In this document: positions 1 through 17,643 of the stretch, piece after piece
How positions within the stretch are numbered: the stretch's first letter is position 1
Layout: the number at the start of each line of letters is the position of its first letter
IMG/VR virus record: IMGVR_UViG_3300021426_000073
Location: 48,064-112,063 of that record
Reading direction: 5' to 3' (one strand)
DNA from: a virus
Taxonomy: Duplodnaviria; Caudoviricetes
Length of the DNA stretch: 64,000 nt
Made by a program: the position numbers and the translations under genes
The notes under the pieces: generated by a model
Seen by the model: only the letters and a program-made list of their open reading frames with translations
The model's database searches: none
Told to the model about the DNA's origin: nothing

Positions 1-2
1 TA

Positions 3-575
3 AAAGAGATAGACTTAGCAACAAATATGCGTGGTATGAGTGCCGTTCAAGGCACAGGATTAAGATGTGATGCTGGTAATGCGAAATTAAGAACAGGTAC
101 AAATTTTGATTATGCAGGTATATATGAAATAGAAATACCTTTTGGTACTTTTGATAGAACTACCGCCGTTCGTAATGGAAACAATTTTATACTAACAATA
201 GGTAGAGGTACATACGCTCTTATGCTTTGCTATCAATATAACTCAAGCACAGATACAGGAAAATGGTGGGTTCACGACCAAACAGGTGCTAACGTATATC
301 TTGATTATGGCGATAATGACCCATATTTCTTTGAAAACAAAACATTGCATCTATTCTATGGTGCAAAGATTGTTGATGGAGAAATAGTAAGGGATGCTAA
401 CAGAGGTTATTTTTATGTTGATGATGTTCAATTAAATTCAATAGGTGCTTATTTGACAGGTGATATAGATAATGGCGTACAAGTATTTATGTTAGGCGAT
501 GGCAGAGGAAGTGGTGGATTCATTGGTGTTGTTTATGAAAGTTTAAAGGTATATCAATATTTCAACAAATATTAA
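3..575 (+). CDS. C-terminal part of a phage tail/structural protein (frame open at window edge)
   Basis: No stop from base 3 to TAA 573-575; beta-rich Gly/Tyr/Asn composition; precedes tail-fibre genes. Confidence 0.55.
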   Translation, partial: KEIDLATNMRGMSAVQGTGLRCDAGNAKLRTGTNFDYAGIYEIEIPFGTFDRTTAVRNGNNFILTIGRGTYALMLCYQYNSSTDTGKWWVHDQTGANVYLDYGDNDPYFFENKTLHLFYGAKIVDGEIVRDANRGYFYVDDVQLNSIGAYLTGDIDNGVQVFMLGDGRGSGGFIGVVYESLKVYQYFNKY

Positions 576-683
576 ACACCAGTTAGCCTTATGAGTGCAA
601 GTCCATCTGAAAGCAAATCATCAAGTGAATCCGAATGAAAGACGGATGATGAAAAATCTGTCGAATATGTTGAATATTAATAA

Positions 684-712
684 TTAAGGGACTGCTTCGG
701 TAGTCCCTTAAA
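684..712 (+). terminator. Stem-loop, probable intrinsic terminator
   Basis: TTAAGGGACTGC-TTCG-GTAGTCCCTTAA hairpin. Confidence 0.55.
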
Positions 713-735
713 TAATTTTTTAAGGAGGTTTTCCT

Positions 736-927
736 ATGATTACAAATGATACTATTAAAAATCAAGGCGATGATGTAAAAGGATTTATAGGCTTATCCAC
801 AGATGATAAACCGATTGATAAAATTAATGGAATCACATTAAAAAACGGAATGTATTTTTACGAAATTGACACTTGCGATGTTTATATGTTTAGTGAAAAA
901 ACACATGAATGGATTGTTCAAGACTAG
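736..927 (+). CDS. Small tail-associated hypothetical protein
   Basis: AAGGAGG RBS; GLSTDDKP...NG..FYEIDT..VYMF motif resembling small proteins next to tail genes. Confidence 0.7.
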   Translation: MITNDTIKNQGDDVKGFIGLSTDDKPIDKINGITLKNGMYFYEIDTCDVYMFSEKTHEWIVQD

Positions 928-941
928 AAAGGAGTTAATCT

Positions 942-1973
942 ATGGATATTATCACATTATCTTTGGCTAAAAAATATACTGCTAATACTGCTGATGCTTT
1001 AGGTGCGGTAAAAGGTGCTCCTTGTAAAATAAAAAACATAGAATCTACATCTGAAGGAAACACTGTTACTTTTGAATGGAAAGGTGATAGCGGACAAATT
1101 CAGACACGTACAATGATTGTTAAAAATGGTACTGATGGTGAACAAGGTGCTTCTATTGCTTCCGCTGTTGTTACACAAGATGGTAATTTGATATTAACAT
1201 TAACTGATGGTACAGTGGTCGACTGTGGCGTAGTTACAGGTCAAGCACAATTGCAACAACCATTAACTGCTACAGTTGAAATCGGTACAGTAACAAACGG
1301 AAAAACATATGCCAAAGGAACAAATCTGGAACAAATTATAAGAGATATGCTTATTAAATATTTACCGCCTGCTATTTCTTTAACTACTACTCCTGCTACT
1401 AAACTATACGACATTGTAACAGATAGTGTTGCTACTATTCTTTTAAAGGCAGCAGTAACGAAAAAGACAAACAATGTAACAAAAGTTTCGTTTTACGTAG
1501 GAGATACGTTGGTTAATGAAGTAACTTCTGGTGTTGCTTCAGGCGGAAATTTTCAATTCCAATACACACCAGATACTGCCATTAGAACAGATGTAACGTT
1601 TAAGGCTACTGCTACTGATGGCAAACAAACAAGCACTTCTTCTTATGCGATTAAATTTGTAGGAAGAAGTTATTATGGTATTTGTGATGCTTCAGTATCT
1701 GACCCAGATGAAACTACTATTAAGAGTGGCTCTAATGTATTAAAGGATACTAGAAACTTGACATATTCTGGTATTACTACAAGTTGGGGTAAAGTATTTT
1801 ATGCATATCCAAAGAGTTTTGGTGCATTAACATATATTAAAGATGAAGTAAACAATATTAACTATTGGGACAGTTTTCAACGCAGCGATGTAACGATAGA
1901 TGGTGTTCCATGTTATTGTTATACATTAATAGAACCAACTGGTGCAACAGATAATCAGATAGTATTTAAATAA
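942..1973 (+). CDS. Tail fibre/structural protein with Ig-like domain
   Basis: RBS; Thr-rich beta composition; short GxxGxxG stretch; C-terminal YYG domain similar to next gene. Confidence 0.65.
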   Translation: MDIITLSLAKKYTANTADALGAVKGAPCKIKNIESTSEGNTVTFEWKGDSGQIQTRTMIVKNGTDGEQGASIASAVVTQDGNLILTLTDGTVVDCGVVTGQAQLQQPLTATVEIGTVTNGKTYAKGTNLEQIIRDMLIKYLPPAISLTTTPATKLYDIVTDSVATILLKAAVTKKTNNVTKVSFYVGDTLVNEVTSGVASGGNFQFQYTPDTAIRTDVTFKATATDGKQTSTSSYAIKFVGRSYYGICDASVSDPDETTIKSGSNVLKDTRNLTYSGITTSWGKVFYAYPKSFGALTYIKDEVNNINYWDSFQRSDVTIDGVPCYCYTLIEPTGATDNQIVFK

Positions 1974-1987
1974 GGAGGAAGATAAAA

Positions 1988-3556
1988 ATGGCTATTAGTT
2001 TAATGGACAATCTTGATATTAGAAAATCTACTCCTAATGTTAAGAGAGATATGTTTGAAACTATTGCTGATATGAAAGACTATAATGAAAATTATCTTCC
2101 TCAAGTATTTATTTCAACTTGTGTTGAAGATGGTTGCATTTATATTTTTAATAAGGGCAATATAGTGGATGACACAACTGGCAAATGGAGAAAGTTCGAG
2201 GGTGGAACTGCCGATTTGCTAAACTATTACAACAAAACAGAAGTCGATACACTTCTTGATGATAAAGTAGATAAAGAAACTGGAAAAGGTCTATCTACTA
2301 ATGATTATGACGATGATGAAAAAGGACAAGTACAACAGAACAAAGAAGATATTGCAACTCTAAACGGAGATGCAACTGTTACTGGTTCTGTTGATAGCAA
2401 AGTAGCACAAGGCGTACAAGATGCTAAAAACTACACAGATGAGCAAATCGCACTTATAAATATTGACGAAGCTATTAAGTGTGATACTATGCCTACATAT
2501 GATAGTGCTACAGATAAAATAACTTATATTAAAGACGGCACTTCTACTACAATAGATGCTGATGCAATATGGTTCTACTATGAAGATAATGATAAACTCA
2601 TGCAGTCAATTCTTATTGATGGTGAATGGACTACTATTGTTTCAGCTGGTAGTGTTAATTTTGCTGATTATGTATCAAAAACAAATGATGTTGTAAGTAC
2701 ATATACAGGCGATGAAGTTATTACTTCTAAAGTTCCTGACATTGCTGCAATGAAGGCTTTGCAGGCTATTGTAGAAACAGAACTTGATGATAAGGTTAGT
2801 ATTTCACAAGGTTCTACAAATGCAGATAAGGCTGTTATTACTGATGAAAACGGTGATATTACTCTTGCTCCACTATCTACTCTTGGTGGAGATGCAGAAA
2901 ACATAACTTACACTAACACAGACTTTCCTACATACACAGATGTAGATAAGGCACTTGATGCTATATTGGCAAAACTTTACTATGTAGAACCAGCAATTAC
3001 AAGTTTCACTTCTACTCCATCGACTCTCACATATGAGAACGGTGCAGTTATTACTGGTGGCGTTGTATTTAACTGGACATACAATAAAGATATGACAACT
3101 CAGACTCTTACTGACTGTACGCTTGCTGATGAAACAGTAAGAACGGCTACATATGAAAATGATATTTCAGCAAGCAAAACATTTACTCTTAATTGTGGTG
3201 ATGGTGAAAAGACTGCTAGTAAGTCAATAGCATTCCAGTTTATGAACAAAGTATACTGGGGTGTTTCAGCAGATCAAGATACTTATACTGATGCATGGAT
3301 ATTAGGTTTGAGCGGAAGTAAGTTAGCAACTAATGCAAAAGGCAGTTACAACTTTACTGCTGGTACTGGTCAGTATTGCTACTTCGCTCTTCCAACATCA
3401 ATGAGTATTACGGTTAAAGTAAATGGATTTGATACAGACCTTGATACAGTTGTTGCAAGTAAATCATTCCAGAATGCGAGTGGCTACACAACAACATATA
3501 AAATAGTTAGATTACATCAGCCAAGTCTTGGTACTTTGACTGCTGTAGTTAGTTAG
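1988..3556 (+). CDS. Tail fibre protein
   Basis: RBS; NYYNKTEVD and KVDKETGKGLSTNDY motifs typical of phage fibre/head-fibre proteins. Confidence 0.7.
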   Translation: MAISLMDNLDIRKSTPNVKRDMFETIADMKDYNENYLPQVFISTCVEDGCIYIFNKGNIVDDTTGKWRKFEGGTADLLNYYNKTEVDTLLDDKVDKETGKGLSTNDYDDDEKGQVQQNKEDIATLNGDATVTGSVDSKVAQGVQDAKNYTDEQIALINIDEAIKCDTMPTYDSATDKITYIKDGTSTTIDADAIWFYYEDNDKLMQSILIDGEWTTIVSAGSVNFADYVSKTNDVVSTYTGDEVITSKVPDIAAMKALQAIVETELDDKVSISQGSTNADKAVITDENGDITLAPLSTLGGDAENITYTNTDFPTYTDVDKALDAILAKLYYVEPAITSFTSTPSTLTYENGAVITGGVVFNWTYNKDMTTQTLTDCTLADETVRTATYENDISASKTFTLNCGDGEKTASKSIAFQFMNKVYWGVSADQDTYTDAWILGLSGSKLATNAKGSYNFTAGTGQYCYFALPTSMSITVKVNGFDTDLDTVVASKSFQNASGYTTTYKIVRLHQPSLGTLTAVVS

Positions 3557-3566
3557 GAGGTTATAA

Positions 3567-5144
3567 ATGGCAATTAGATTAGCCGATACTGCTCGTCCTA
3601 ATAACTATGTTGATCCTGAGCATCTGGGAACTTTCCCAGTTGCTTATGCAGAGGACGTGTGGTTTGCGGATGGTACAAGATTAAGTGAAAAAACTTTCGA
3701 GGGTCAGAGTATTCAGAAAGAGGAATTACCTCTTGCGACTGCTATTGAAGAAGGAAATATATATCAGTATATTGGTGCTGATGGTACATATAAAAATGGT
3801 CGCTTTTATATTTGTAAGTATGTGGGTAGTTCTAATTATTCGTGGTCAGAAATACCAATGGTTACTAATCCTGTTGTATATAGTGAAACTATTCCGTTGG
3901 TAGCCGGATATAACAGTGGTGCAATAGTATGTTACACTGGCGAGAATAGTGGTGATTTCACAAAAGGACATTTATATCAAAAGAATGAAACATCTTATAC
4001 TTATTATTATTGGACATTTTATAGAGATTTAGAAAAAACACAGCCATACATATTCTATACAAGAGAAGAAACATTAGCTAATGGTGTAAATGTATATCAA
4101 GCTGATCCTACAACTGGAGAAGGCAATATATCACTTGTTGGTTCTATTACTAATTATCAAGAGTGGAGCTTTTTTGTAAATAGTTCAAGTACTGTTCAGT
4201 ATTTCTATCCCGAAGCTAATACTTCAAAAAATAGAAATGTTGCAGAGGGTAATTGGATTGATATAGGTGGCGGTAATGCGGTTGGTGGAATTATAGATGT
4301 AGAAACTCTGCCAACATCTGATATTAAAAATACATTTTATAGAACTAAAGAAGATGTTGGTGGAAAAACTAGAACAATAGAAGTGAGTCTTACGTCTGCA
4401 ATGTCTTTTGATGAAAAGGTTGCATATCTTTCACAATACTTTATAGTACATCCAGACCAAGCTAATAATCGTATAGATATAGAAACATATCCTGATTTAT
4501 ATATGACCAGAGCATCTTGGACGAAGCATTATTCTGTTCCTGAAGAAACTTTAGCTTTAATGTATTTAAATACAGAAAGAATTGAACTTAATTGGGATGC
4601 AGATAATACTGGTACTCCACAGACAGAAACCAGTATGGTAATGCCTTTACTGTTTTCTTCTTCTCATTTTCCTAGTGCAGTGTATTATGCTGGAGATGAA
4701 ATAAATCAGACTACTGAACGTATGGCAACATACGAAGATATACCAAAAGAATTTATAGGCACACAAGCTGAATGGGATTCTCTTACCGCTGATGAGAAAG
4801 CACAATATATCATTGTTAATATCACTGATGATACTAACACCAACGGAAAATTTATTGATATTACTTCACAATGTACCGTAGTTCTTGGTACAGCAAAGGT
4901 TATGAAGTGTGGACAGATTGTTGTGGTAAATGGCTATGCACCTAAAGTGAGTGGTTCTAATGGCTTTAGAGAGGTTATAACGAGAGTCCCTGTACCAATA
5001 AGTAATGGTACTTCTAATACAGCAATTGGCAATGCATTGCATACGTCTACTCAGAGTGTGAGGGTAACAGATTCTATACTGAGGGTGTACTGTTCAACAT
5101 CCACTGAAACAAATTATAGTATTATGTACTTGACAGATGAATAA
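3567..5144 (+). CDS. Tail fibre/receptor-binding protein
   Basis: GGAGG RBS; mosaic sequence; FIGTQAEWDSLT..EK motif of phage fibre proteins. Confidence 0.65.
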   Translation: MAIRLADTARPNNYVDPEHLGTFPVAYAEDVWFADGTRLSEKTFEGQSIQKEELPLATAIEEGNIYQYIGADGTYKNGRFYICKYVGSSNYSWSEIPMVTNPVVYSETIPLVAGYNSGAIVCYTGENSGDFTKGHLYQKNETSYTYYYWTFYRDLEKTQPYIFYTREETLANGVNVYQADPTTGEGNISLVGSITNYQEWSFFVNSSSTVQYFYPEANTSKNRNVAEGNWIDIGGGNAVGGIIDVETLPTSDIKNTFYRTKEDVGGKTRTIEVSLTSAMSFDEKVAYLSQYFIVHPDQANNRIDIETYPDLYMTRASWTKHYSVPEETLALMYLNTERIELNWDADNTGTPQTETSMVMPLLFSSSHFPSAVYYAGDEINQTTERMATYEDIPKEFIGTQAEWDSLTADEKAQYIIVNITDDTNTNGKFIDITSQCTVVLGTAKVMKCGQIVVVNGYAPKVSGSNGFREVITRVPVPISNGTSNTAIGNALHTSTQSVRVTDSILRVYCSTSTETNYSIMYLTDE

Positions 5145-5158
5145 TCGGAGGTGAAATT

Positions 5159-6040
5159 ATGAGTGTAAATAGATATAACTCCGCAACAGGAGAACTTGAA
5201 AAAATTGCAGGTGGTACCTTATATGCGGATGCACCGATTGGTACTATTAGTCCTTTCGGTGGTTCAGCGATCCCTAGTGGATATTTACTTTGTGATGGTA
5301 CGGAGGTTCTTAAAACCGCCTACGCAGAGTTGTATGCAGTAATAGGTGATGCTTTCGGAACAGCGAGTGATAATACAAAATTTGTGTTGCCCGATTTAAG
5401 AGAGGCTACAACAAAAGGTGTTGGATTAAGCGGCAAAAGTGAAAATCATTATAGTGAAACTGGTGTTGTCCTCGGTGAGTTTATAGAGGATAGATTACAG
5501 TCACATACTCATGGTATTAGAAATGGTTTTGATGGTGCTGACCCCGATAGTGCAGAACGTGGTGATGGTAGGCATGGCTACTCTGCCAAATCAAATGATG
5601 CGTCGGGACGTACTGGTAACACTACCGAAGTTAAAGCAGTAGGTGTCAACTACATCATCAAAGCTAAACAGATTGCAATACCTGCTGACATTCAGTCAGC
5701 CATTGAAGAACAGAACTCCTACTCTACTGAGGAAACTTATACTGGCAAGAGATGGATAGATGGTAAACCGATTTATAGAAAAGTGCTTGTAAGAACAGGA
5801 AGTGCCTCTGGTACGGGTGAATTAACAATAGGAACAATTGACAATTTTGCACAACTTGTCAATATTACAACTATAACAAATTCAAATGCTGGTAGCAACC
5901 AAGAGGTAGAATTTTATAGATATCGTGATAGTAGATTATTGATATCAAATGGAACTGCGGCAGTCAAGATGGACAGGGTTAGTAATTACAATATTGACAA
6001 AGTAACTATGATTGTAGAATACACCAAAACTACAGATTAA
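5159..6040 (+). CDS. Tail-collar domain fibre protein
   Basis: PIGTISPFGGSAIPSGYLLCDG...YAELYAVIG..F..PDLR collar motif; YSTEE..TGKRWIDGKPIYRK C-terminal module. Confidence 0.85.
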   Translation: MSVNRYNSATGELEKIAGGTLYADAPIGTISPFGGSAIPSGYLLCDGTEVLKTAYAELYAVIGDAFGTASDNTKFVLPDLREATTKGVGLSGKSENHYSETGVVLGEFIEDRLQSHTHGIRNGFDGADPDSAERGDGRHGYSAKSNDASGRTGNTTEVKAVGVNYIIKAKQIAIPADIQSAIEEQNSYSTEETYTGKRWIDGKPIYRKVLVRTGSASGTGELTIGTIDNFAQLVNITTITNSNAGSNQEVEFYRYRDSRLLISNGTAAVKMDRVSNYNIDKVTMIVEYTKTTD

Positions 6041-6107
6041 AATAAATAAGGGTTTCTTTATAAAATATTAAGGATTTATAATTAATATTTATAAAGGAGA
6101 TATATAA

Positions 6108-6344
6108 ATGTGCAAAAATATAAAACTTTGTTCTTTAATTAAACCAGAAATAGATAGGTGTTATGAGCTATGCAACTTCACATATGATGAATCTGAATAT
6201 TTTAAACTTAAAACTAAAGATAAATCTAATGTAGCTATAGCACAAGAAATGAATGTTAGTGAAGCACAAGTTTCTAAACTTGCACGCAGAGTAAAGGATA
6301 AAATATTAAAACTAATTGAATTAGGATTATTAGATATGGAGTGA
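6108..6344 (+). CDS. Small HTH regulator (LuxR/GerE/sigma region 4-like)
   Basis: SNVAIAQEMNVSEAQVSKLARRVKDKI helix-turn-helix. Confidence 0.7.
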   Translation: MCKNIKLCSLIKPEIDRCYELCNFTYDESEYFKLKTKDKSNVAIAQEMNVSEAQVSKLARRVKDKILKLIELGLLDME

Positions 6345-6365
6345 TGAAAGTCACTCCATTTTTTT
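6336..6365 (+). terminator. Intrinsic terminator after HTH gene
   Basis: ATGGAGTGA-TGAAAG-TCACTCCAT followed by T run. Confidence 0.6.
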
Positions 6366-6460
6366 ACAATTTTTGTATAATTTTCATAAATGAGGTGTAT
6401 AAGTACACCTCATTTTTTTACTCTATACTATTACTATAAAACAACGAAAGGTTATATGTT

Positions 6461-6841
6461 ATGGGATACGTTTATTACAATCCTAATCCTAAAGCATTGC
6501 GAGTTGGGGATTGCACAGTTCGTGCAATCTCTAAACTCTTAAGCCAAGATTGGGAAACAACATATATTCAACTTTGCTTGCAAGGGCTTGAAATGAATGA
6601 TATGCCATCATCTAATAATGTTTGGGGTTCATTCCTTATGAGCAAAGGATATCAAAGATATATTATACTAGACTCTTGCCCTAACTGTTATACGGTTAAA
6701 GATTTCTGTATTGATCATTCGACAGGAGATTATTTACTTTGTACTGGAACGCACGTTGTTGCAGTTATGGATGGAGGAAATTACTTTGACACTTGGGATA
6801 GTGGCGATGAAGTTCCTGTGTTTTATTTTAGAAAGGAGTAA
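6461..6841 (+). CDS. Hypothetical protein with putative papain/transglutaminase-like Cys-His-Asp triad
   Basis: GDCTVRAI ... GTHVVAV ... YFDTWDSG motifs. Confidence 0.55.
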   Translation: MGYVYYNPNPKALRVGDCTVRAISKLLSQDWETTYIQLCLQGLEMNDMPSSNNVWGSFLMSKGYQRYIILDSCPNCYTVKDFCIDHSTGDYLLCTGTHVVAVMDGGNYFDTWDSGDEVPVFYFRKE

Positions 6842-6844
6842 AAA

Positions 6845-7243
6845 ATGGCATTTAATATTCCTACAAATTACCAACAAATATATTACCCACAACCAGCACC
6901 ACAAATGCCTCAGCAACAACAGAGTTGCAACATAACATGGGTATCTGGAGAAGCTGGTGCTAAATCATATTTGGTAGCCCCTAATACTACTGTTCAACTT
7001 TGGGATAGCGAATCACAGACTATCTATTTAAAATCAGCAGATGCATCGGGTATGCCTACAATAAAGACGTTAGATTACACGATAAGAGATACTCAAGTTC
7101 CAAATCCTAGCGTGAATGTTATGGAGCGTGAAGAAACTTCTTATGTAACAAAAGATGAATTTGATGATTTAAAAGACGAGCTAGAACAGATAAAAGATAA
7201 ACTCTATTCAGAAAAAGAAAACAATAAAAGATTTAGGGGGTAA
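6845..7243 (+). CDS. Gln/Pro-rich hypothetical protein
   Basis: RBS; WVSGEAGAKSYLVAPN..LWDSE...IYLKSADASG core; coiled-coil tail. Confidence 0.75.
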   Translation: MAFNIPTNYQQIYYPQPAPQMPQQQQSCNITWVSGEAGAKSYLVAPNTTVQLWDSESQTIYLKSADASGMPTIKTLDYTIRDTQVPNPSVNVMEREETSYVTKDEFDDLKDELEQIKDKLYSEKENNKRFRG

Positions 7244-7248
7244 ATATT

Positions 7249-7452
7249 ATGGGTAATCCTTTATTTAATACTTATGGAAATAATAATATTATACAAAAAT
7301 TTATGCAATTTAAAAATTCATATAACGGAGACCCTAAACAACAAATACAACAAATGTTGAATAGCGGTCAACTAACACAAGAACAATACAATCAAGCAGT
7401 TGAAAAAGCAAATCAATTGCAGATGTTATTAAACGGATTTAAAAATATATAG
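7249..7452 (+). CDS. Small Gln-rich hypothetical protein
   Basis: DPKQQIQQMLNSGQLTQEQYNQ; co-oriented in module. Confidence 0.75.
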   Translation: MGNPLFNTYGNNNIIQKFMQFKNSYNGDPKQQIQQMLNSGQLTQEQYNQAVEKANQLQMLLNGFKNI

Positions 7453-7517
7453 CATACACTAGACAAAATTCACACGATATATATTGCAATATATAAATAA
7501 ATTTAAGGAGGTTCATT

Positions 7518-8312
7518 ATGGCTTTAGATGGAAATGAAGGAATGGTAATGCCAGTATCACCTATGTATGGTGGTAATGGTGGCGGATTCGGAAATGGTTT
7601 CGGAGACGGCTCTGGCTGGTGGATTTTACTTCTCTTTATCTTATTAGGCGGTTGGAACAACGGCTTTGGCGGTAATGGAAATGGCACTCCATATGTAGTT
7701 GGTAACACTGTACAAGATGGTTTTAATCAAGCTGCTTTGACAAGTGGTATTGGCGATATTCAGAGTGCTCTTTGTAATGGTTTCGCAGGTGTAAATTCAA
7801 ATGTGGCTAATGGATTTGCCCAAGCAGAAATCGCAGATAACTCAAGACAAATTGCTAATATGCAGCAATCATTCGCAAATCAGACAGCTATGAATAGTGG
7901 CTTTAACGCTCTCCAGTCACAGCTAGCAAGTTGTTGTTGCGAATCAAGACTTGCATCAGCCAACTTACAGAATGTAATCCAGTCTGAAAATTGTGCTGAC
8001 AGAAGTACTATTAGCGATGGCATAAGAGATATTCTTGTTGCTAACAACAATAATACTCAGCGTATTTTAGATCAATTATGTAATGATAAGATTGATGCTA
8101 AAAACGAGAAAATTGCTGATCTTGAGAGACAACTTACAATGGCTAACTTATCAGCTAGTCAGAATACTCAAACACAAACACTACTTGCAGATAACTTTGC
8201 TCAAACAAGTGCTTTAGAGCAATATCTTGCACCAGTACCTAGACCTGCATACATCGTGCAGAATCCTAATTGCTGTGCTCAGAATGTAGGCTGTGGTTGC
8301 GGTTCATACTAG
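7518..8312 (+). CDS. Gly-rich, hydrophobic-segment, coiled-coil Cys-rich protein (spore-coat-like)
   Basis: AAGGAGG RBS; GFG repeats, WWILLLFILLGGW, CCC, terminal CC..CGCG. Confidence 0.75.
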   Translation: MALDGNEGMVMPVSPMYGGNGGGFGNGFGDGSGWWILLLFILLGGWNNGFGGNGNGTPYVVGNTVQDGFNQAALTSGIGDIQSALCNGFAGVNSNVANGFAQAEIADNSRQIANMQQSFANQTAMNSGFNALQSQLASCCCESRLASANLQNVIQSENCADRSTISDGIRDILVANNNNTQRILDQLCNDKIDAKNEKIADLERQLTMANLSASQNTQTQTLLADNFAQTSALEQYLAPVPRPAYIVQNPNCCAQNVGCGCGSY

Positions 8313-8329
8313 AAATGAGGTGATTACTT

Positions 8330-8812
8330 ATGGCTGAATATACAAACGCTGCTATTCAATCTGTATCACCTAGTCAGCCTGTATTATTGAATACAACTAT
8401 TGGCTGCCCAAAAGGATATGTTATCCATCGTGAGGGAAGTGGTATCTTAACATTAAGGGGCATTGTAAATTGTCCTAATTCATGCTTTGCAAGATACCAA
8501 GTAACATTTAATGGCAATATAGCCATACCTGAAGGTGGTACTGCTCCAGCTCCTGTTAGCGTTTCTATCGCAATTGACGGAGAACCGTTAACAACTAGTA
8601 AGGCTATTGTTACGCCAGCTGCTGCTGCAGAAGCTCCACCATCAACAAACAACTACTTTAATGTAACGAGTACGGCTATAGTAACTGTACCTAGAGGCTG
8701 TTGCTTTAATATTTCTGTAGAGAATACAAGCGAAAGCTTAACTCCAGCTACTACTCCAGCTCCTACAATTAATGTAGCAAACGCTAACCTTGTTGTTAGC
8801 CGAATAGCGTAG
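8330..8812 (+). CDS. Beta-sandwich protein (possibly BclA C-terminal/C1q-like)
   Basis: RBS; alternating beta pattern YQVTFNGNI...VSIAIDGE...NANLVVSR. Confidence 0.6.
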   Translation: MAEYTNAAIQSVSPSQPVLLNTTIGCPKGYVIHREGSGILTLRGIVNCPNSCFARYQVTFNGNIAIPEGGTAPAPVSVSIAIDGEPLTTSKAIVTPAAAAEAPPSTNNYFNVTSTAIVTVPRGCCFNISVENTSESLTPATTPAPTINVANANLVVSRIA

Positions 8813-8828
8813 AGAGGAGGATTTTGAT

Positions 8829-9203
8829 ATGATAGATGCTATGGATAAATTATGCGACACTCTATACAAAGCATTAGATGAAGTATCTGAAAAACCATTA
8901 ACAACTTCTTCTTTAGATAATATTTTTAAAATTGTTGGTTCAATTTATAAATTAGAGAAGATGGAGAAGAAAGATGATGGTTATTCATCAAACTCTTCTT
9001 ATGCTAGAGGAAGTTCCATGAGATATGGTCAGAATAGTTACGGACGTGATTATATGCGTGGTAATTCGAACGACTATATCATGGGTACAAGCAGACATAA
9101 CAAAGAAGATGTCAAAATGGAACTTTACAAATTAATGCAAGATACTGATGATGAAAATGTCAAAGATATGTTGCAGAACTTTATAAGAGAAATGGAAAGA
9201 TAA
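8829..9203 (+). CDS. Hypothetical protein, last gene of + strand module
   Basis: GGAGG RBS; helical ends with Ser/Tyr/Arg/Gly-rich linker. Confidence 0.75.
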   Translation: MIDAMDKLCDTLYKALDEVSEKPLTTSSLDNIFKIVGSIYKLEKMEKKDDGYSSNSSYARGSSMRYGQNSYGRDYMRGNSNDYIMGTSRHNKEDVKMELYKLMQDTDDENVKDMLQNFIREMER

Positions 9204-9224
9204 ATCCTATCTGAATACTATGTC

Positions 9225-9262
9225 AAAAAGGGAGGCGTACCGAAAATGGTACGCCTCTTTAT
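9225..9262. terminator. Bidirectional intrinsic terminator between convergent genome arms
   Basis: AAAAGGGAGGCGTACC-GAAAAT-GGTACGCCTCTTTT with A run before and T run after. Confidence 0.8.
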
Positions 9263-9303: not shown

Positions 9304-10365
9304 TTATTTAGTTTTTATTTTTTTCACTGACCACTTGCCCAATGTATCATATCCTACCGCTCTAACTCTAATATAATAAGTCTTTTTACGCTTTAGTTTT
9401 TTGATTGTCTTGATTGAATCAATTACATTATACGCTTTAGCCTTTTTGAAATTTTTCTTTAAAGAAATTTGAATCTGATATTTCATTGCGAAATCAACTT
9501 CGTTAAATGATACTGTTACCTTATTCCTTTTTACTTTAGCCTTGAGGTTTTTGATACCAAGATTAACTCTTGATTTTGAATTAGTTACATTAGACTGGTT
9601 TACAATATTTGTTATTGTAGATGTATTACCTACTATTGTTGTTGTAATTTTAGGCGTTTCAATTTTAGGGTAACCAACGTGTTCTACAAACCATTGATTT
9701 TCATTTATAACATAACTTGCTGCATTGAAGTTAGAAAAATTTAAAGAATTATAGTATGAATATTTTTTAATTTCTTCAGGCAGTAATGCAAATGTCCATG
9801 CAGCATTTCTTCTCCACATAAGAGAATTGTATTTGCCAGTTTCTGAATTTAATACATTACATTCTTTTACCAACTGTTCGTATTGTTTTACTTCTGTGTT
9901 ATTAATAATTTGTTTTAAAAATACTAAATGTGTTAGATAATAATTATAATAGTTTCTGTAGTCTATTGTTTTTGTAACTTTTTCGTATTGTTGATACCAC
10001 TCGTTGTTTTCGTCTCTATGACCTATATAATCATAATATTCATATGTTTTTGAAAATGTTTCATAATTAAAATTAGTAGCTGATAAATTGTAAACACTAT
10101 CGCTTGCTTTTCTTCCGTTTAATCTGATGCAATCCAATACATCATTATACTTGCCCATCCAATTAGAAGCTTTTGTTCTAAAATCATCAGTATCATATGA
10201 ATTAAAATTATCGTGTCCAATAGCTTTTAATTCATTAATAAGTCCGTCTATTAGTCCTATTGCTACTTCCTTGTCTGTCTTTTCTTTAGCATCTACAGTA
10301 TTGATTCCACTAAAACATAATATTAATACTAATAATAAACTAATTATCTTTTTCATTGTAATCAC
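9304..10365 (-). CDS. Secreted protein with C-terminal fibronectin type III-like domain
   Basis: Signal peptide MKKIISLLLVLILCFSG..VDA; C-terminal YQIQIS..KNFKK...KKLKRKKTYYIRVRA..GKWS. Confidence 0.7.
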   Translation of the reverse strand: MITMKKIISLLLVLILCFSGINTVDAKEKTDKEVAIGLIDGLINELKAIGHDNFNSYDTDDFRTKASNWMGKYNDVLDCIRLNGRKASDSVYNLSATNFNYETFSKTYEYYDYIGHRDENNEWYQQYEKVTKTIDYRNYYNYYLTHLVFLKQIINNTEVKQYEQLVKECNVLNSETGKYNSLMWRRNAAWTFALLPEEIKKYSYYNSLNFSNFNAASYVINENQWFVEHVGYPKIETPKITTTIVGNTSTITNIVNQSNVTNSKSRVNLGIKNLKAKVKRNKVTVSFNEVDFAMKYQIQISLKKNFKKAKAYNVIDSIKTIKKLKRKKTYYIRVRAVGYDTLGKWSVKKIKTK

Positions 10366-10496
10366 CTTCCTTTGTTTTATAATAACACTTTAAAACTACT
10401 TTGAAAAGTATTTTAAGGTATATAACAAACTATTTATAAAAAAATAAATTCTTATATAACTTAAAATGTCTAATACATCTGCTCTCCTTTCTTATA

Positions 10497-10685
10497 TGGT
10501 TACCTTTTGGTTACTTTTTAATAATCAATTAAGTATAATACTTGAATTTAAGCCATTTTTTTATTAGTTCTGATTTCGAATCCCACCGTCTCCGCTACTT
10601 TTCGGCTTTAAACCGTCATTTTGGGATAGTCGAAATTGGTTACTTTTGATTTTTGGGTGGTTACTTTTTCGGGTTGAGTAACCAT
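10497..10685. other. attP region: tRNA-Ser 3'-end core plus arm-type repeats
   Basis: TTCGAATCCCACCGTCTCCGC at 10575-10595; TGGTTAC(C/T)TTT repeats at about 10497, 10508, 10637, 10658 and inverted GTAACCA at 10678. Confidence 0.75.
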
Positions 10686-11876
10686 GGATTCAAGTTGTGT
10701 TACTAAGCTAGCTTTATAATCCATATTTCCAATATCATAAGTATAGTAATTGTTATTTACTTCAATAGAATTGCCAAGTAAGCTTGATGCAATAAAAGTG
10801 TTTGCTCCTAAAGATTTTATATAAGAGTTAAATGTTCTTCTTAATGCGTGAATACTTTTGTTTTTCATTCCAGCTTGCTTGGTTTTTTTACGTCCGCAGC
10901 TTGAAATAGCACTACAATGTATTTTGCCGTTTTTGTTTGAAAACACATACTCTGTTAAAAATCCATATTCTTCTTCTACTGCATGAAGTCTTTCTAGCAA
11001 TGTTTTGATATTATCTGTCAAAGGAAGAAATCTTATCTTATTTGTTTTGGTAGTTGATATGTAATAACAATTATTTATTCTATCTTGTTTTTCAGAACGC
11101 ATAATTACTATTCTGTTTTTCTTATAATCAATATCTTCCCATTTTAATCCAGCCAATTCACCGACTCTTAATCCAGTAAGCATAGCTAACTGTACTGCAT
11201 ATGGTGTTATCAACTCAGGCTTGTATATATGGTCTTCTTCCAACTTATTCCATAAAGTAACAAGTTCGTTTTCTGACAATATCCTTTCTTCTGGCATCTT
11301 ATAATTTTCTTTGCAAAACTTTTGAAACATCTTTATCTCTACATAATCACAAGGATTATTTTCAAGCTTATGTTTTCTTATTGCATAATTAAAAATACCA
11401 TTTAACATTTGGTAGAATTGTTTGATACATTTATATGTATACTCTCCATTGGTTAGTATACTTCTTATGTGATTACCAATGTCTACCTCGGTTATAGAAC
11501 GGATATCTATTTGAGATATTTCTTTGTCATTTAGAAACCTTTTGTAATTACTTTTATATTTGATTATAGTTGCACTTGATACACCCATAGCGGTTTTGTA
11601 CTCGATCCACTCTGGAAAAATTTCTTCTATATTAATAAGAAATAATTTTTCATAATGTTCGTTCAACTGCTCAATTAGTTTATCTTTAGATTTTTTCTTT
11701 ATAAGTTTTCTTTTACCATCAACCATTAAATGCGTTCGCCAGAAGCCATCAGCTCCTTGCCAAATACTGTATTGATGATTCTTTACTTCCATTTTCTCCT
11801 TTACAGATGTATTAGACAATGCTATATTACACTGCTCAAGGAGTTTTTTCAAGACATCTTCTTCTATTTCAATCAT
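10608..11876 (-). CDS. int: Phage tyrosine integrase
   Basis: TGLRVGEL, TKTNK, HALRRT, LGNS..VNNNYY catalytic motifs; probable start ATG 11876 overlapping upstream TGA (ORF track extends to 11909). Confidence 0.9.
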   Translation of the reverse strand: MIEIEEDVLKKLLEQCNIALSNTSVKEKMEVKNHQYSIWQGADGFWRTHLMVDGKRKLIKKKSKDKLIEQLNEHYEKLFLINIEEIFPEWIEYKTAMGVSSATIIKYKSNYKRFLNDKEISQIDIRSITEVDIGNHIRSILTNGEYTYKCIKQFYQMLNGIFNYAIRKHKLENNPCDYVEIKMFQKFCKENYKMPEERILSENELVTLWNKLEEDHIYKPELITPYAVQLAMLTGLRVGELAGLKWEDIDYKKNRIVIMRSEKQDRINNCYYISTTKTNKIRFLPLTDNIKTLLERLHAVEEEYGFLTEYVFSNKNGKIHCSAISSCGRKKTKQAGMKNKSIHALRRTFNSYIKSLGANTFIASSLLGNSIEVNNNYYTYDIGNMDYKASLVTQLESMVTQPEKVTTQKSKVTNFDYPKMTV

Positions 11877-12190
11877 GCGTATCCCCCAAAAGTCCCTAAA
11901 TACATCCAAGTGTCTTTGTAATTACCATACTGATATACCTCGGTAGTAAAAGGATCTTGAACAAAAACAGTTATCATCTTATCTTTTCCTAACTGCTCTA
12001 CTATTTCATTAAATGTAAGGAACTCTAAATCCATACATAAACCTTCGCAATATTCTTTATTCCAGTTTAATTGAGTAGGCTTTAGGTTTGATACTCCGCC
12101 AGTATATACACAAGTCTTAGAAACGGTATCAAACTCAATCAATTGCTGGTTTTGTTCTTCCTCAGTAAGCATTCGCATACAGTTACTCAT
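11873..12190 (-). CDS. Hypothetical protein translationally coupled to integrase
   Basis: GAGGTG RBS; ATGA overlap with int. Confidence 0.65.
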   Translation of the reverse strand: MSNCMRMLTEEEQNQQLIEFDTVSKTCVYTGGVSNLKPTQLNWNKEYCEGLCMDLEFLTFNEIVEQLGKDKMITVFVQDPFTTEVYQYGNYKDTWMYLGTFGGYA

Positions 12191-12563
12191 TATCGTTCAC
12201 CTCTTCCGATTCTGTAACTATTACAGTACCTAATCTTTTACATTCTTTTTTAAAAGAGTAATAGTCTATAATATTACTCCAACGTTTCATCCAAAACAGA
12301 AATAGCTCGGCTTCTGTACACCGAGCTATTCTGCCATTTTTAATCTCCACACTTATCACCTACTGGTTCACAGAAGACTACGTCTCCTAATTTATCTTTT
12401 ATGATTTTGTATGTAATTTTTCCATCATCGAAATATTGAACTTCGTATGTATTTTTTGCTTTATCTTGTTTTCTTAAACTATGTCCTAACAAACATAAAC
12501 AAATAAACATTAAAATTAATAAAAACATCATGCGTAAACAAAATTTAGCTTCTTCAATCATAA

Positions 12564-12911
12564 TTACCACCTCATAGCATCCTCATAATAAAACGGACAC
12601 TTTTTTTCATATCCTAATGTATTAGACAAAAGCATACACTTACCATCATATTCGTTGTAGCATCCTTTATGTTTACACGTTGGTAAAAACATAGGTTGAT
12701 ATTCTAAATCAATTTTTCTTCCAAAAAATCTATCAATATCTTTTCTTAAATATTTATGTGGCTTATCTCCATGTTTGTACCATTTCGTCAATGTAGATGC
12801 ATCAACATTAATAGCCTCTGCAAGCGTTGCTAATTCTGTATTTGTACTATCAATTAATTCCCTAAAAGTCATTATTTCTCCCCTTGCGTTGCATATAATT
12901 TTGCCATTCAA
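12564..12911 (-). CDS. XRE-like HTH protein with Cys-rich tail
   Basis: LATLAEAINVDASTLTKW; C..C...C...CPFY. Confidence 0.55.
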   Translation of the reverse strand: MNGKIICNARGEIMTFRELIDSTNTELATLAEAINVDASTLTKWYKHGDKPHKYLRKDIDRFFGRKIDLEYQPMFLPTCKHKGCYNEYDGKCMLLSNTLGYEKKCPFYYEDAMRW

Positions 12912-13021
12912 TATCTATAATGAATAGTGATATATACATAATAAATGTTGAAACTACCGATGCTATTGCAGCATCTTTAGTTGTGGCATATGTACTACCT
13001 ATTAAAGTTCCGAATAAAATA

Positions 13022-13702
13022 CTAATCACTCCGTCTTTCCAATTCATCGTTACGCTCTCCAATCTTTTTGGTTAAATCTTTTACTATTGATTTATCTTCG
13101 AAATACAAAGATTCTGCTCTCTTACCAACTTTCTTTCTGGCTGATGTAGAACCGTTAATTAAATAATCGATATGATCTACTATGTTAGGATTAAGATTTA
13201 TAAACTTTGTATTAGGTTTGTGTTTTCTTATATACCTTTTAAAAACAGAATCATCACCACGTTTCTTTTCTTTCCAGTCATCATACTCATTGGAATTGTA
13301 ATAATGTAACGCACAATGATTAGCTAAATAATTAGGTATCTTTATACAAGGAAAAGAAAACCATAACATTGATAAATCATTACTTTCTTCGTTATAAAAG
13401 TCTTTACGTTTTTTATCATAAAAAGTACAAAGACCACAAACTAATCCATCGAAATCGTTATACTTTTGTGTTTTTTCATAAAAATCTCTGCTAATGCAAA
13501 CATCATCTTGTAAATGCCATGTGTGTCCATCTTCAGGAACATATTTAAATGATTGCATACAAGACTCTAAATTGCCCACACCATGCCTGTCTATCCAAAT
13601 AATAATGTCATCAACGTCTATTCCTTGCTCAAGCATTGACGGTACTAAAAATTCATCTACATACCATTCACGTTGAGGACAAGCGTGTATTATATAATTC
13701 AT
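13022..13702 (-). CDS. Glycosyltransferase-like protein (GT-A fold)
   Basis: WHLQDDV acidic motif, SFPCI, DD, PNIVDHI. Confidence 0.6.
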   Translation of the reverse strand: MNYIIHACPQREWYVDEFLVPSMLEQGIDVDDIIIWIDRHGVGNLESCMQSFKYVPEDGHTWHLQDDVCISRDFYEKTQKYNDFDGLVCGLCTFYDKKRKDFYNEESNDLSMLWFSFPCIKIPNYLANHCALHYYNSNEYDDWKEKKRGDDSVFKRYIRKHKPNTKFINLNPNIVDHIDYLINGSTSARKKVGKRAESLYFEDKSIVKDLTKKIGERNDELERRSD

Positions 13703-13821
13703 ATTTTTAAAATCCTTTTATTTTGCAATGAATTTTGTCTAGTTTATATTATCTCTAAGGGCACGTTTATTAACGTGCCCAGCAGAAAATAATATGAAAT
13801 CAATCAGCTAATATAGCTTAA

Positions 13822-13898
13822 CAGGAACTCGGGGAATCGAACCCAAAAAACGACTTCTGATTTTGGAGATCAGCGTGCTACCATTACACCAAGAACCT
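13822..13898 (-). tRNA. tRNA-Trp(CCA), atypical or possibly pseudo
   Basis: CTGAT-CTCCAAA-ATCAG anticodon arm; two U-U mismatches in acceptor stem; long U-rich variable loop. Confidence 0.7.
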
Positions 13899-14009
13899 AT
13901 GTACGGTTTATAGTTAACCGCAAACTGCACATCACCGATATTAGCCTGAAGCATTAATTAACTTAACACCTCACTGAGTTTCGGTATCATTTGCTCTCTA
14001 ACTCTCGCA

Positions 14010-14083
14010 TAAGGATGACAAGATTTGAACTTGCAATTTCAGAGTACCAAACTCTGCGTTCTGCCAGATTGAACTACATCCCT
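14010..14083 (-). tRNA. tRNA-Pro(TGG)
   Basis: Full cloverleaf AGGGATG...CAGAG-TTTGGTA-CTCTG...GTTCAAATC...CATCCTT-A. Confidence 0.9.
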
Positions 14084-14105
14084 AATAGGTATATATACCT
14101 TAGAA

Positions 14106-14186
14106 TAGGAAAGAAAGGATTTGCACCTTTGAACCCGAAGGAACGGTTTTACAGACCGCCTGCTTTGTCTACTTGCATACTTTCCT
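14106..14186 (-). tRNA. tRNA-Tyr(GTA)
   Basis: GCGGT-CTGTAAA-ACCGT arm, long variable arm, acceptor AGGAAAG/CTTTCCT. Confidence 0.85.
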
Positions 14187-14195
14187 AAGAGGTTT

Positions 14196-14345
14196 CCGCA
14201 CGGCAAAAGTCTTTCGATGAAAATCCGTATGGCAATTTTCACTCTATTCATCAAGAGGTATAAAAAATGAATAGTATGTTAACCAACAAAAAAGTTGATT
14301 GCTAACGACTATATGCGGCAAAAGACTTTCGTGGAAAATCCGCAT
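14196..14345 (-). ncRNA. Two copies of a covarying hairpin motif (unknown ncRNA)
   Basis: 14196-14232 and 14313-14345 share CGGCAAAAG-NN-TTTC-NN-NGAAAATCCG with compensatory changes. Confidence 0.5.
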
Positions 14346-14604
14346 CAAGAAATTTTCCTATGATTGGATTGAATCAAAATATATGAAAAAAATATTGGAG
14401 TATATTGTTATACACTTTCTTAATGATAACTACAACAACGGTTTGCCTATCCTAAAAACAAATATAAGAGAGTATAATACTCAGTTACAAACAGTTGCTA
14501 AGAAAAGTTTGTTTTATCCCCATTATAGCTATGCTACAAAAAGCAAACCGTTGTTAGCTATCAATTTTAAAAATCCTTTACAGTGGGTTTAAGAGTAACT
14601 TATA

Positions 14605-14712
14605 ATTACTCCACGCACTCTGAGTCTCCCACGGCTAAAGTCGAAGGATTCTTGGGACTAGTAGATTAATATCCACTTTATTACCAAGCTAACCGGACAA
14701 CTCCTGCCCTTA
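14605..14712 (-). ncRNA. Orphan TnpB-type omegaRNA / IS200-IS605 right-end remnant
   Basis: AGGGCAGGAGTTGTCC-GGTTAGCTTGG...CCCAAGAATCCTTCGACTTTAGCCGTGGGAGACTCA; same architecture as the tnpB right end at 26242-26335; no adjacent tnpB. Confidence 0.7.
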
Positions 14713-14913
14713 TATTTATATTATAAAAATAATATCATCAATAATTCACATAGCACTTGGTGCTAAACAATGTCAATGTAAATATATGTGTATAGGAATT
14801 AATACAATAAAAACAAAAAAGGTTTGGTTTTCACCACTAAATTAATGGAAGATTTTTCTACCAAATGCTATGTGAAATGCTGCATCAATTCTCTATGATT
14901 TTTGTCTAGTTAA

Positions 14914-14986
14914 CGGCGGTAATAGGATTTGAACCTATATCATTGGAGTCAAAGTCCAATATACTAACCACTTGTACTATACCGCT
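14914..14986 (-). tRNA. tRNA-Gln(TTG)
   Basis: TTGGA-CTTTGAC-TCCAA arm; complete cloverleaf. Confidence 0.9.
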
Positions 14987-15106
14987 AAAGTAGGACGGTT
15001 TTAAAGTCAACCAACTACTTATCTTTACTGTTGTTTTGTTATCAGTATAATTGATTATTTTAAGAAAGGAGGCTAGTCTGGAACTAGCATGCCTACGATA
15101 AAAAAA

Positions 15107-15180
15107 TTGCGGAGATTGGATTTGAACCAATGACCTTGAGTTTATGAGACTCACGAGCTACCGAACTGCTCTACTCCGCT
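15107..15180 (-). tRNA. tRNA-Met(CAT) with initiator-like body
   Basis: AGCGGAG-TA-GAGCAGTTCGGTAGCTC-G-TGAGT-CTCATAA-ACTCA; 1-72 mismatch. Confidence 0.9.
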
Positions 15181-15255
15181 ATGTTACCAAACGAAAAATA
15201 AACATTTTCGAAGGGAGTTCAATAAATATTCACTTGTTTCATTTGGTATGCCTTA

Positions 15256-15286
15256 AGTATAAATGATGGTGTGAATTTTGTCAAGT
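15256..15286 (-). promoter_or_regulatory. Sigma-A promoter of tRNA cluster; -35 lies inside the repeated 15-bp motif
   Basis: TTGACA (15284-15279), 17 bp, TATACT (15261-15256). Confidence 0.8.
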
Positions 15287-15301
15287 TTAAAGTTAAATTT
15301 T

Positions 15302-16717: not shown

Positions 16718-16908
16718 AATTATTCCTCTAGTTCATAATATAATAAAAATTTTCTATTGAAAGCCATCTTTTTGCTACCGTCTTCTTTACTAAAAAGAAC
16801 ATGAGTATCAGTATTAACTGCATACCATTCATCGGCATTAAGCTTAATAATTTTACTTGCTTTAAAATCTTTTCCACACACAATTTTGTAATACATTATT
16901 GCTCCTAT

Positions 16909-17638: not shown

Positions 17639-17643
17639 AATAA

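Follow-up and report, generated by a model that had tools for sequence, protein, structure and literature searches.

The six genes g2–g7 of the phage DNA studied here (positions 6461–9203) form a real and widespread syntenic core of gut and rumen phages, and this cassette is not tied to spore-forming hosts. The DNA, hereafter the window, is a stretch of 64,000 nucleotides from the circular 112-kb genome of a siphophage. An earlier note made from the sequence alone had described in it a seven-gene module resembling a spore-coat assembly kit, and all seven ORFs were indeed found on the + strand. Six of them constitute the conserved core, but the first, g1, does not belong to it, as g1 or another small helix-turn-helix (HTH) gene, c6, lies within three genes upstream of the cassette in only 27 of 72 loci. 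The carriers are siphophages of gut and rumen Bacillota, and the cassette is self-contained.

Conservation and placement of the cassette

The g2–g7 synteny is shared with the Butyrivibrio phage Ceridwen and with about 80 fetched loci, which bears out the earlier view of these genes as a functional unit. ORF clustering of the fetched loci, where reverse-strand ORFs over g6/g7 were sometimes miscalled, gave 77 gene copies for g5, 61 for g2, 54 each for g3 and g6, 52 for g7 and 45 for g4, with the gene order kept. This is far beyond chance grouping. Even in one locus reshuffled to c14-g5-g6-c15-g7-g2, the same families still stand together. The site of the cassette differs among phages, being 3′ of the endolysin gene, 5′ of the terminase gene or 3′ of the tail-fibre genes, and one phage sharing the syntenic tail genes lacks the cassette altogether, thus indicating that it is accessory. 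Taxon labels of metagenome-assembled genomes (Prevotella, Methanobrevibacter and others) were discarded as evidence on hosts, since phage contigs readily end up in the wrong bin.

The proteins g2–g6 match the PHROG families 3754, 21718, 22984, 16490 and 20016, respectively, with E-values from 4e-22 to 2e-37, and are therefore already catalogued as phage families; all five are labelled there as "unknown function" and are not described as one cassette. Beyond PHROG, no useful match was obtained for g3–g7 in Pfam, NCBIfam and PADLOC, nor for g2, g3, g5, g6 and g7 in sequence-profile searches of the PDB. The PADLOC defence models gave no match to g2–g7 at E ≤ 1 and only a chance-level match to g1. 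As we found no explanation of the cassette in curated families, defence catalogues or the literature, no known system fits it, which does not in itself demonstrate a new mechanism.

Predicted proteins of the cassette

The g2 gene (6461–6841, + strand) encodes a 126-aa protein predicted to be a minimal papain-fold enzyme with a Cys-His-Asp triad. In 32 homologues the residues N7, N9, D17, C18, R21, H98 and D110 are invariant, so that the spaced Cys, His and Asp motifs pointed out earlier correspond to Cys18, His98 and Asp110. In the AF2 model (pLDDT 95.7), C18 opens the helix 18–26, while H98 and D110 flank the strands 99–103 and 107–110. All of the 50 best VIA matches of this model are papain-like enzymes, Josephin, C39 and staphopain among them (Z from 6.6 down to 3.7), and the best align over 101–107 residues with an rmsd of 3.7–4.0; Foldseek also places Josephin and ComA on top, but with E-values of 0.1–0.4. 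The papain-like fold expected from the letters alone is thus supported, and its absence, which the earlier note had named as counting against its proposal, was not what we found.

Among clan CA enzymes, the best structural matches of g2 are the C39 double-glycine peptidase domains (ComA, PCAT1) and the Josephin type, with Z of 6.0–6.6. They are similar in size to g2, and share with it a Cys nucleophile at the start of a helix and a His and an Asp located on strands further along the chain. Unlike them, g2 has no family membership, no fusion to an ABC transporter and no encoded ubiquitin-like partner, and the Z values are middling. As to curated sequence families, phrog_3754 was the only one reached, with no Pfam, NCBIfam or PDB sequence match at E ≤ 1–10. 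The earlier note had suggested a protease or transglutaminase acting on Gln-rich partners; in the VIA comparison the fold does not discriminate between a peptidase and a transglutaminase, a deamidase being a further candidate, and the Pfam search gave no Transglut_core match. Homologues of g2 occur without g3–g7 in Bacillus, Geobacillus and Prevotella Lak phages, hence g2 need not act on partners from the cassette.

The two proteins that follow are Gln-rich, as had been noticed before, with 9.1% Gln in g3 and 17.9% in g4 vs. 3.1% genome-wide; their homologues contain no invariant Gln or Lys. The g3 protein (6845–7243, + strand; 132 aa) is P/Q/Y-rich at its N-terminus and helical at its C-terminus, with a small, conserved core of beta-like character; we found no PDB or Pfam relative, and its Atlas neighbours are viral and unnamed. 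The g4 gene (7249–7452, + strand) encodes a 67-aa Q/N-rich helical protein with an invariant P29 and a near-invariant G40.

The g5 protein (7518–8312, + strand; 264 aa) carries an invariant MxMPVxP, Gly-rich sequence and the hydrophobic segment WWILLLFILL. Its long Q/N-rich helical part includes the invariant CCC, and its C-terminus NPNCC..GCGCG. The conserved cysteines are clustered at C139–141, C252/253 and C259/261. The protein contains 11.7% Gly and in general agrees with the Gly-rich hydrophobic protein with CCC/CGCG motifs described at first, but the coiled coil ascribed to it did not hold up, since the region 95–238 lacks a 3.5-residue periodicity (z < 0) and only a stretch at about 186–235 is heptad-like. 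The hydrophobic segment covers about 13 residues and has no flanking K/R, which makes membrane anchoring unsure. The g5 family is large, with 1,052 representatives at 50% identity (E ≤ 1e-10) and more than 7,900 clusters at 90% identity in a search limited to 8,000 candidates; its Atlas neighbours are exclusively viral clusters, none of them named. The N-terminus gave no match at E ≤ 1 to the YjcZ/SscA models of NCBIfam/Pfam, in a search whose HMM filters serve low-complexity sequences poorly; YjcZ/SscA-type proteins are small peptides, in contrast to the 264 aa of g5. The idea that g2 cleaves a double-glycine leader off g5 was also considered and rejected: the sequence does not fit the leader consensus, and g2 is found elsewhere without g5.

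The g6 gene (8330–8812, + strand) encodes a 160-aa protein predicted to be a stand-alone TNF/C1q-like jelly roll. Its AF2 model is all-beta (pLDDT 92), and the best solved structures found by Foldseek are the F-BclA C-terminal domain (9h38), ExsFA (7r1m) and BxpB (8d02), with E-values of 9e-7 to 5e-6, TM-scores of 0.64–0.70 and a sequence identity of 14–16%. This confirms, at the level of the predicted fold, the beta-sandwich protein of the earlier note. No Pfam/NCBIfam match at E ≤ 1 and no PDB profile match at E ≤ 10 supported membership in a sequence family. Apart from one odd 394-aa chimera, no fused or longer forms of g6 were seen, nor was a collagen-like stalk or an N-terminal exosporium-targeting region. 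BxpB is a trimeric adaptor that grips the N-terminal peptide of its partner among Cys-rich proteins (PMC10470788; PMC12357932). The jelly roll of BxpB/ExsFA and of the BclA/F-BclA C-terminal domains (8d02, 7r1m, 9h3d, 9h38, 1wck) is the same as that predicted for g6, with a sequence identity of only 12–16%. Moreover, BxpB (167 aa) and g6 (160 aa) both stand alone and carry cysteines (conserved in g6 at C26 and C124/125), and the gene of each lies beside one for a Cys-rich protein. In contrast to BxpB and BclA, g6 is phage-encoded, occurs in non-sporulating hosts and has neither a collagen-like partner nor an exosporium. A prediction of the complex of three g6 with one g5 gave a score of 0.02, which is evidence neither way.

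The last protein, g7 (8829–9203, + strand; 124 aa), has helical ends and a central low-complexity stretch rich in R/G/S/Y (of the RDSMGRY type in relatives). It clusters with the 52 genes placed 3′ of g6 and has 3,835 relatives, none of them named. Low-complexity sequence is thus present in g3, g4, g7 and the N-terminus of g5.

Transcription units and control elements

The cassette is organized as two units, g2–g4 and g5–g7. Within each unit the genes are closely coupled, with median gaps of ≤15 nt at the other junctions vs. 61 nt between g4 and g5. The gap 5′ of g5 is conserved (49–132 nt) and carries a nearly g5-specific palindrome and the TATAAATA element. In the window this is the perfect 18-bp palindrome TATATATTGCAATATATA, overlapping TATAAATA (7478–7499, + strand); in other loci the element reads GTGC(G/A)CA(C), then N5–12 and TATAAAT. 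Within the 1.85 Mb searched, 16 of the 25 occurrences lie within 140 nt 5′ of g5. Judging from this sequence pattern, g5–g7 have a conserved putative promoter element of their own, the TGC(GC)A palindrome beside TATAAATA. A near-copy of the palindrome at about 28025 in the window was rejected, being incomplete and located within a coding region.

Just upstream, at 7458–7472 on the + strand, lies one instance of the 15-nt motif ACTAGACAAAATTCA that recurs throughout the phage genome; this copy had been presented as the only + strand operator copy. It is the sole clean + strand copy in the window, but the genome as a whole contains four more among about 25 copies. Every copy is co-oriented with the local genes and located just 5′ of the ribosome-binding site or the −10 element, and several copies provide a TTGACA/TAGACA −35 element 17 nt from the −10. 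The motif thus looks like a promoter element rather than a module-specific operator.

The borders described earlier were confirmed in part. At the 3′ end, a bidirectional terminator hairpin (9232–9257; a 10-bp stem, seven of its pairs being GC, with T-runs on either strand) closes the cassette, but at the 5′ end both terminators sit 3′ of g1 and hence inside the module as first drawn. According to the terminator scan and the sequence, these are two tandem terminator-like hairpins on the + strand (6336–6359 and 6388–6415, together 6336–6415), which separate g1 from g2. The g1 gene (6108–6344, + strand) encodes a 78-aa HTH protein, an optional neighbour of the cassette. It had been called GerE/LuxR-like; it does give weak HTH matches, but the GerE score (19.0 bits) falls under the cut-off of 23.5, and region 4 of the sigma-70 ECF model TIGR02937 matches as well (E = 5e-5, 22.9 bits vs. 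a cut-off of 42.9), as do PHROG sigma-factor and regulator families at E of about 1e-3. Its sequence therefore suggests that g1 is likely an HTH of the general GerE/LuxR or sigma-70 region 4 type. BLAST showed no similarity between g1 and the c6 HTH protein, and loci of both types have the same type of palindrome, so the box is not attributable to either regulator.

Contigs from RNA libraries of two studies (gut or rumen metatranscriptomes) lie on g5–g7: on the g5 side (7638–8441), on g6 and on g7 (8794–9232), and one of them stops at 9232, at the closing hairpin. The RNA runs were chosen by words from the cassette, and several contigs represent relatives diverged by 3–5%. The window regions 1–7600 and 10000–20000 were free of RNA-library contigs above 35 nt in length, although DNA sequencing of the same sample covers everything about 90-fold; missing cover does not mean silence, and a higher expression of g5–g7 than of the flanks does not follow from it.

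Possible roles and the question of spores

Taken together, these features lead us to propose, tentatively, that the cassette is an accessory kit which might build, in infected vegetative cells, a Cys-rich assembly of several proteins associated with the membrane. As signal peptides are absent from all of the proteins, we infer that they would meet within a vegetative infected or lysogenic cell, in its cytoplasm or on the inner side of its membrane, where the products may assemble into a multi-protein structure, possibly a cross-linked one. The g5 protein could serve as a scaffold anchored via its Gly-flanked hydrophobic segment, and g6, which is probably trimeric, would be a BxpB-like adaptor or cap. 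In turn, g3, g4 and g7 would be self-associating filler or adaptor proteins, g7 through the RG/Y-rich linker between its helices, and g2 may process or modify a component of the cassette or a host protein. Where present, the sigma-4-like g1 may drive or gate the g5–g7 promoter.

Somewhat unlikely, though the strongest of the alternatives, is a role in lysogenic conversion or exclusion, where g5–g7, expressed from the prophage via their own promoter, would act at the membrane against superinfection or alter the host, with g2–g4 as helpers. The cassette is insulated like a moron, being flanked by terminators and equipped with a promoter element of its own; it lies between tail or lysis genes and an integrase gene, and its presence varies among relatives. 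A tyrosine integrase gene lies nearby here (10608–11909), and numerous prophage loci (clusters c18 and c22) show the same arrangement. The hydrophobic segment of g5 and the metatranscriptome contigs on g5–g7 fit as well. In contrast to morons, the cassette comprises six co-evolving genes in two units, many for such a role, and is present in Ceridwen, an integrase-free phage that behaves as lytic in vitro. Furthermore, PADLOC recognized none of the genes, and the families are nearly all viral, with g5 found in only 4 of 401 Lachnospirales genomes.

We consider it unlikely, too, that the products form an accessory virion structure such as a decoration, whisker or auxiliary fibre, with g6 as a trimeric head, g5 as a shaft or membrane-active part and g2 in maturation. 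Here the cassette ends the late region directly 3′ of the tail-fibre genes, it is present in a lytic phage, and the TNF/C1q fold is known in phage fibres (the fibre domain of cyanophage A-1(L)) and in many viral collagen-like proteins. However, the cassette is insulated from the structural operon, it may instead follow the lysis genes or precede the terminase gene, and it is missing in the relative with syntenic tail genes. Besides, g6 is never joined to a shaft, the conservation of g5 is far above that usual for receptor-binding proteins, and the partners are low-complexity proteins.

More doubtful still is a lysis accessory function, in which the products would assist holin and endolysin at the envelope, g5 being membrane-active and g2 hydrolysing the wall or envelope. 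An endolysin gene (ELLD, CHAP or GH25, with wall-binding domains) and one for a small transmembrane protein come directly before the cassette in many loci, and CHAP/NlpC-type amidases are papain-like too, endolysins appearing lower in the g2 VIA list at Z of 4.1–4.6. Against this, terminators part the cassette from the lysis genes in Ceridwen, and also here, where no lysis gene is adjacent (the ELLD homologue of this phage is found in the tail block, 12 kb upstream); there are also loci where the cassette adjoins the terminase gene; and g2 has no wall-binding domain and sits among early genes in other phages.

The proposal of the earlier note, that the cassette serves to alter host spores or to make an exosporium-like layer as the host sporulates, is very improbable: the best solved matches of g6 are exosporium proteins, its partner proteins are Cys-rich, g1 weakly matches GerE, and SpoIVA is found in 79% of the sampled Lachnospirales genomes, so that many hosts may sporulate, but the g6 fold is commonplace in viruses of all kinds, no Pfam/NCBIfam spore family was reached at cut-off, and the restriction to phages of spore-formers that the note had put up as a test is contradicted by the hosts. 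Ceridwen, which carries the cassette, is lytic on the non-sporulating B. fibrisolvens DSM 3071; Butyrivibrio sp. INlla21 contains two copies of the cassette and gave no SpoIVA/SASP match under conditions where the B. subtilis control was positive; and SpoIVA is not enriched, being present in three of four carriers vs. 318 of 401 Lachnospirales genomes. In the literature on BxpB and BclA, a 2011 paper on isopeptide attachment has since been retracted.

Within the proposed assembly in vegetative cells, a more specific and rather doubtful version is a phage-made, exosporium-like protein layer or matrix, composed of a BxpB-like trimer, a Cys-rich anchored rod and prion-like fillers, with a maturation enzyme. 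If true, such a layer might encase the progeny or the lysing cell for persistence; it would be a previously undescribed kind of phage-made structure, with a possible evolutionary link to spore-surface proteins. Irrespective of its role, the cassette keeps six genes together in distant phages, with a conserved control element of its own, and is present in RNA libraries. Given the size of the g5 family, it ranks among the more common gene sets of gut and rumen phages that lack an explanation, and since a cultured model is at hand, Ceridwen on B. fibrisolvens DSM 3071, the question of what it does is directly testable.

A conserved accessory cassette

All seven + strand ORFs described in the earlier note are present: g1 (6108-6344), g2 (6461-6841), g3 (6845-7243), g4 (7249-7452), g5 (7518-8312), g6 (8330-8812) and g7 (8829-9203). 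The results clearly show that g2-g7 (6461-9203), hereafter the cassette, is a unit; the matches of g2-g6 are to five PHROG families without an assigned function. Scanning species-representative genomes with a g5 profile gave 80 loci, in which tblastn and all-against-all clustering found 77 copies of g5, 61 of g2, 54 each of g3 and g6, 52 of g7 and 45 of g4. The usual order, kept nearly without exception, is g2-g3-g4-g5-g6-g7; an alternative layout, c14-g5-g6-c15-g7-g2, occurs in about 12 loci. Its carriers include L030, L031, L036, L044, L049, L050, L054, L058 and L065, and the ORF clusters c14 (about 170 aa) and c15 (about 68 aa) stand in for g3 and g4. In locus L055, g5 is split and g6 bears a stop. 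Of 72 loci, 27 have an HTH gene upstream at a distance of at most three genes, either g1 (13 loci) or c6 (21 copies), a small HTH unrelated to g1. In the Butyrivibrio phage Ceridwen, g2, g3, g4, g5 and g6 follow in the same order 3′ of the endolysin gene, with g7 one gene further on. The cassette is missing from a phage whose tail genes are syntenic (40-55% identity), thus indicating that it is accessory.

The contig ends overlap, and hence the phage genome (112,063 bp, the window being bases 48064-112063) is circularly assembled. Its structural arm on the + strand, with a tape-measure gene of 3,427 aa, is followed by a long arm whose genes are small and lie on the − strand. Between the cassette and the integrase gene, and convergent to the cassette, a − strand gene (9304-10365) encodes a 353-aa protein with a signal-like hydrophobic N-terminal segment and a weakly FN3-like C-terminus; this gene is not kept in other cassette loci, and its part 9644-9984 is touched by RNA-library contigs from another study. 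The sole endolysin-like gene detected in the phage, of the ELLD type, lies upstream of the window inside the tail-gene block (genome 41930-42703) and adjoins neither the cassette nor a recognisable holin gene.

Two units and their flanking signals

Junctions within the cassette are mostly tight (medians of 3 nt for g2-g3, −8 nt for g3-g4, 13 nt for g5-g6 and about 15 nt for g6-g7), whereas g4 and g5 lie a median of 61 nt apart (IQR 49-132), in a gap that keeps an element consisting of a palindrome with a TGCGCA/TGCA core, followed 5-12 nt downstream by (G)TATAAAT(A). The palindrome takes the forms GTGCGCAC, GTTGCAAC, CTGCAG and others across the loci; in the window it is a perfect palindrome of 18 bp (7478-7495), overlapped by TATAAATA (7492-7499). 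When 1.85 Mb was searched on both strands, 16 of 25 matches to the strict pattern fell within 140 nt upstream of g5, and the element was found upstream of g5 at a rate of 24% vs. 1.9% in control windows. The wide gap with its kept element, set against the tight junctions elsewhere, allows us to conclude that the cassette comprises two units, g2-g4 and g5-g7. Of the terminators said to bound the block, the 3′ one holds, a bidirectional hairpin (9232-9257) ending the block; the two terminator-like hairpins at the 5′ side directly follow g1 and so fall inside the module as it had been drawn.

The g5-g7 stretch is present in RNA libraries: it is overlain by contigs of two metatranscriptome runs from the source sample, and also by contigs from one run of another study which, being about 95% identical, represent a relative. 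The span covered is about 7638-9232, with one contig stopping at the terminator. Two RNA-library contigs from different studies start at 7638 and 7639, 120 nt inside g5, where DNA contigs continue past. This shared start hints weakly at an RNA end; a site of RNA processing, or an assembly interrupted by the Gly-rich repeat, could also account for it.

The 15-nt motif ACTAGACAAAATTCA at 7458-7472 (+), which had been taken for an operator, occurs about 25 times in the genome, each copy being co-oriented with the local genes and transcription. Examples on the − strand are at 13743, 15286, 26125, 36830, 51763, 58215 and 62897, and four further + strand copies all lie upstream of the window. Several copies provide a −35 (TAGACA/TTGACA) 17 nt from a TATATT/TATACT −10; others stand about 5-20 nt from an RBS and have no −10. 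This copy number, orientation and spacing indicate that the motif is a promoter-type element used phage-wide, not a cassette-specific operator, and such promoter or regulator sites of the phage may fall into two classes.

The cassette proteins

The papain-like fold proposed for g2 was borne out by its AF2 model (pLDDT 95.7): the best 50 VIA matches are all papain-like enzymes, Josephin, C39 domains, staphopains and AvrPphB among them, with a middling best Z of 6.6 and weak Foldseek agreement. Residues N7, N9, D17, C18, R21, H98 and D110 are invariant among 32 homologues, and none of the curated sequence families searched matches. Elsewhere, homologues of g2 are found without the rest of the cassette, surrounded by early genes or genes of no known function: this is so in Bacillus phages of the Tsamsa and Kirov types, in Geobacillus GBK2 and in Prevotella Lak megaphages (records MK250015-29, KC481682, MW084976 and KJ159566). 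Therefore g2 need not act on its cassette partners.

The Gln-rich character of g3 (9.1%) and g4 (17.9%, vs. 3.1% genome-wide) was likewise confirmed; g3, g4 and g7 are each of low complexity and conserved in short cores, and they have no known relatives. The g5 protein, of a large viral family, is indeed rich in Gly (11.7%) and Cys (10 residues), while the coiled coil ascribed to it found no support, heptad periodicity being not significant. An invariant MxMPVxP at its N-terminus leads into a Gly-rich stretch, after which comes a hydrophobic segment of 13 residues; neither K nor R occurs in the roughly 30 residues to each side of this segment. Then come a helical Q/N-rich part that includes an invariant CCC, and a tail NPNCC..GCGCG.

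The g6 model (AF2, pLDDT 92) is all-beta, in keeping with the proposed BclA-like beta-sandwich, and its best solved matches are the F-BclA CTD, ExsFA and BxpB; phage fibre domains, TNF ligands and C1q rank next. The fold is common in BFVD, including stand-alone proteins of 130-145 aa from uncultured sipho-, podo- and myoviruses, and a search for longer versions found no fused forms except one odd chimera.

Possible role and hosts

We tentatively regard the cassette as an accessory kit whose non-secreted products assemble together, the most probable reading though a doubtful one. By analogy, BxpB may be the nearest working counterpart of g6: it is a stand-alone trimer that clamps the N-terminal peptide of a partner and is located among Cys-rich proteins (PMC10470788). 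The isopeptide attachment of BclA to BxpB was set aside as a template for g6, since the 2011 mBio paper proposing it has been retracted.

A role in exclusion or lysogenic conversion is somewhat unlikely; in its favour, a tyrosine integrase gene lies downstream of the cassette (10608-11909). In other loci the downstream flank varies between integrases, replication genes and the large terminase. An accessory virion structure is an unlikely product; in its favour, the cassette region lies directly 3′ of the tail-fibre genes, the last of which (5159-6040) bears a Phage Tail Collar domain. That the cassette assists lysis appears quite improbable; in favour of it, the upstream flank is often an endolysin gene (ELLD, CHAP or GH25 with wall-binding domains) and a gene for a small TM protein.

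The earlier note had seen here a spore-coat or exosporium-like assembly kit, by which the phage modifies host spores or builds a cross-linked protein structure; of these, the spore reading is now very improbable. The host used to isolate Ceridwen was B. fibrisolvens DSM 3071, and the lytic cycle alone was observed (PMC7372960). Butyrivibrio sp. INlla21 bears two copies of g5, and its locus L028 reads as a full g2-g7 cassette; its genome gave no match to SpoIVA or SASP, the B. subtilis control being positive. Among 401 Lachnospirales genomes sampled, 318 have SpoIVA and four carry g5, three of these four having SpoIVA, so that there is no enrichment. These findings speak against the spore reading on the earlier note's own terms. 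Taken together, these data allow us to conclude that the cassette is present in vegetative, non-sporulating hosts.
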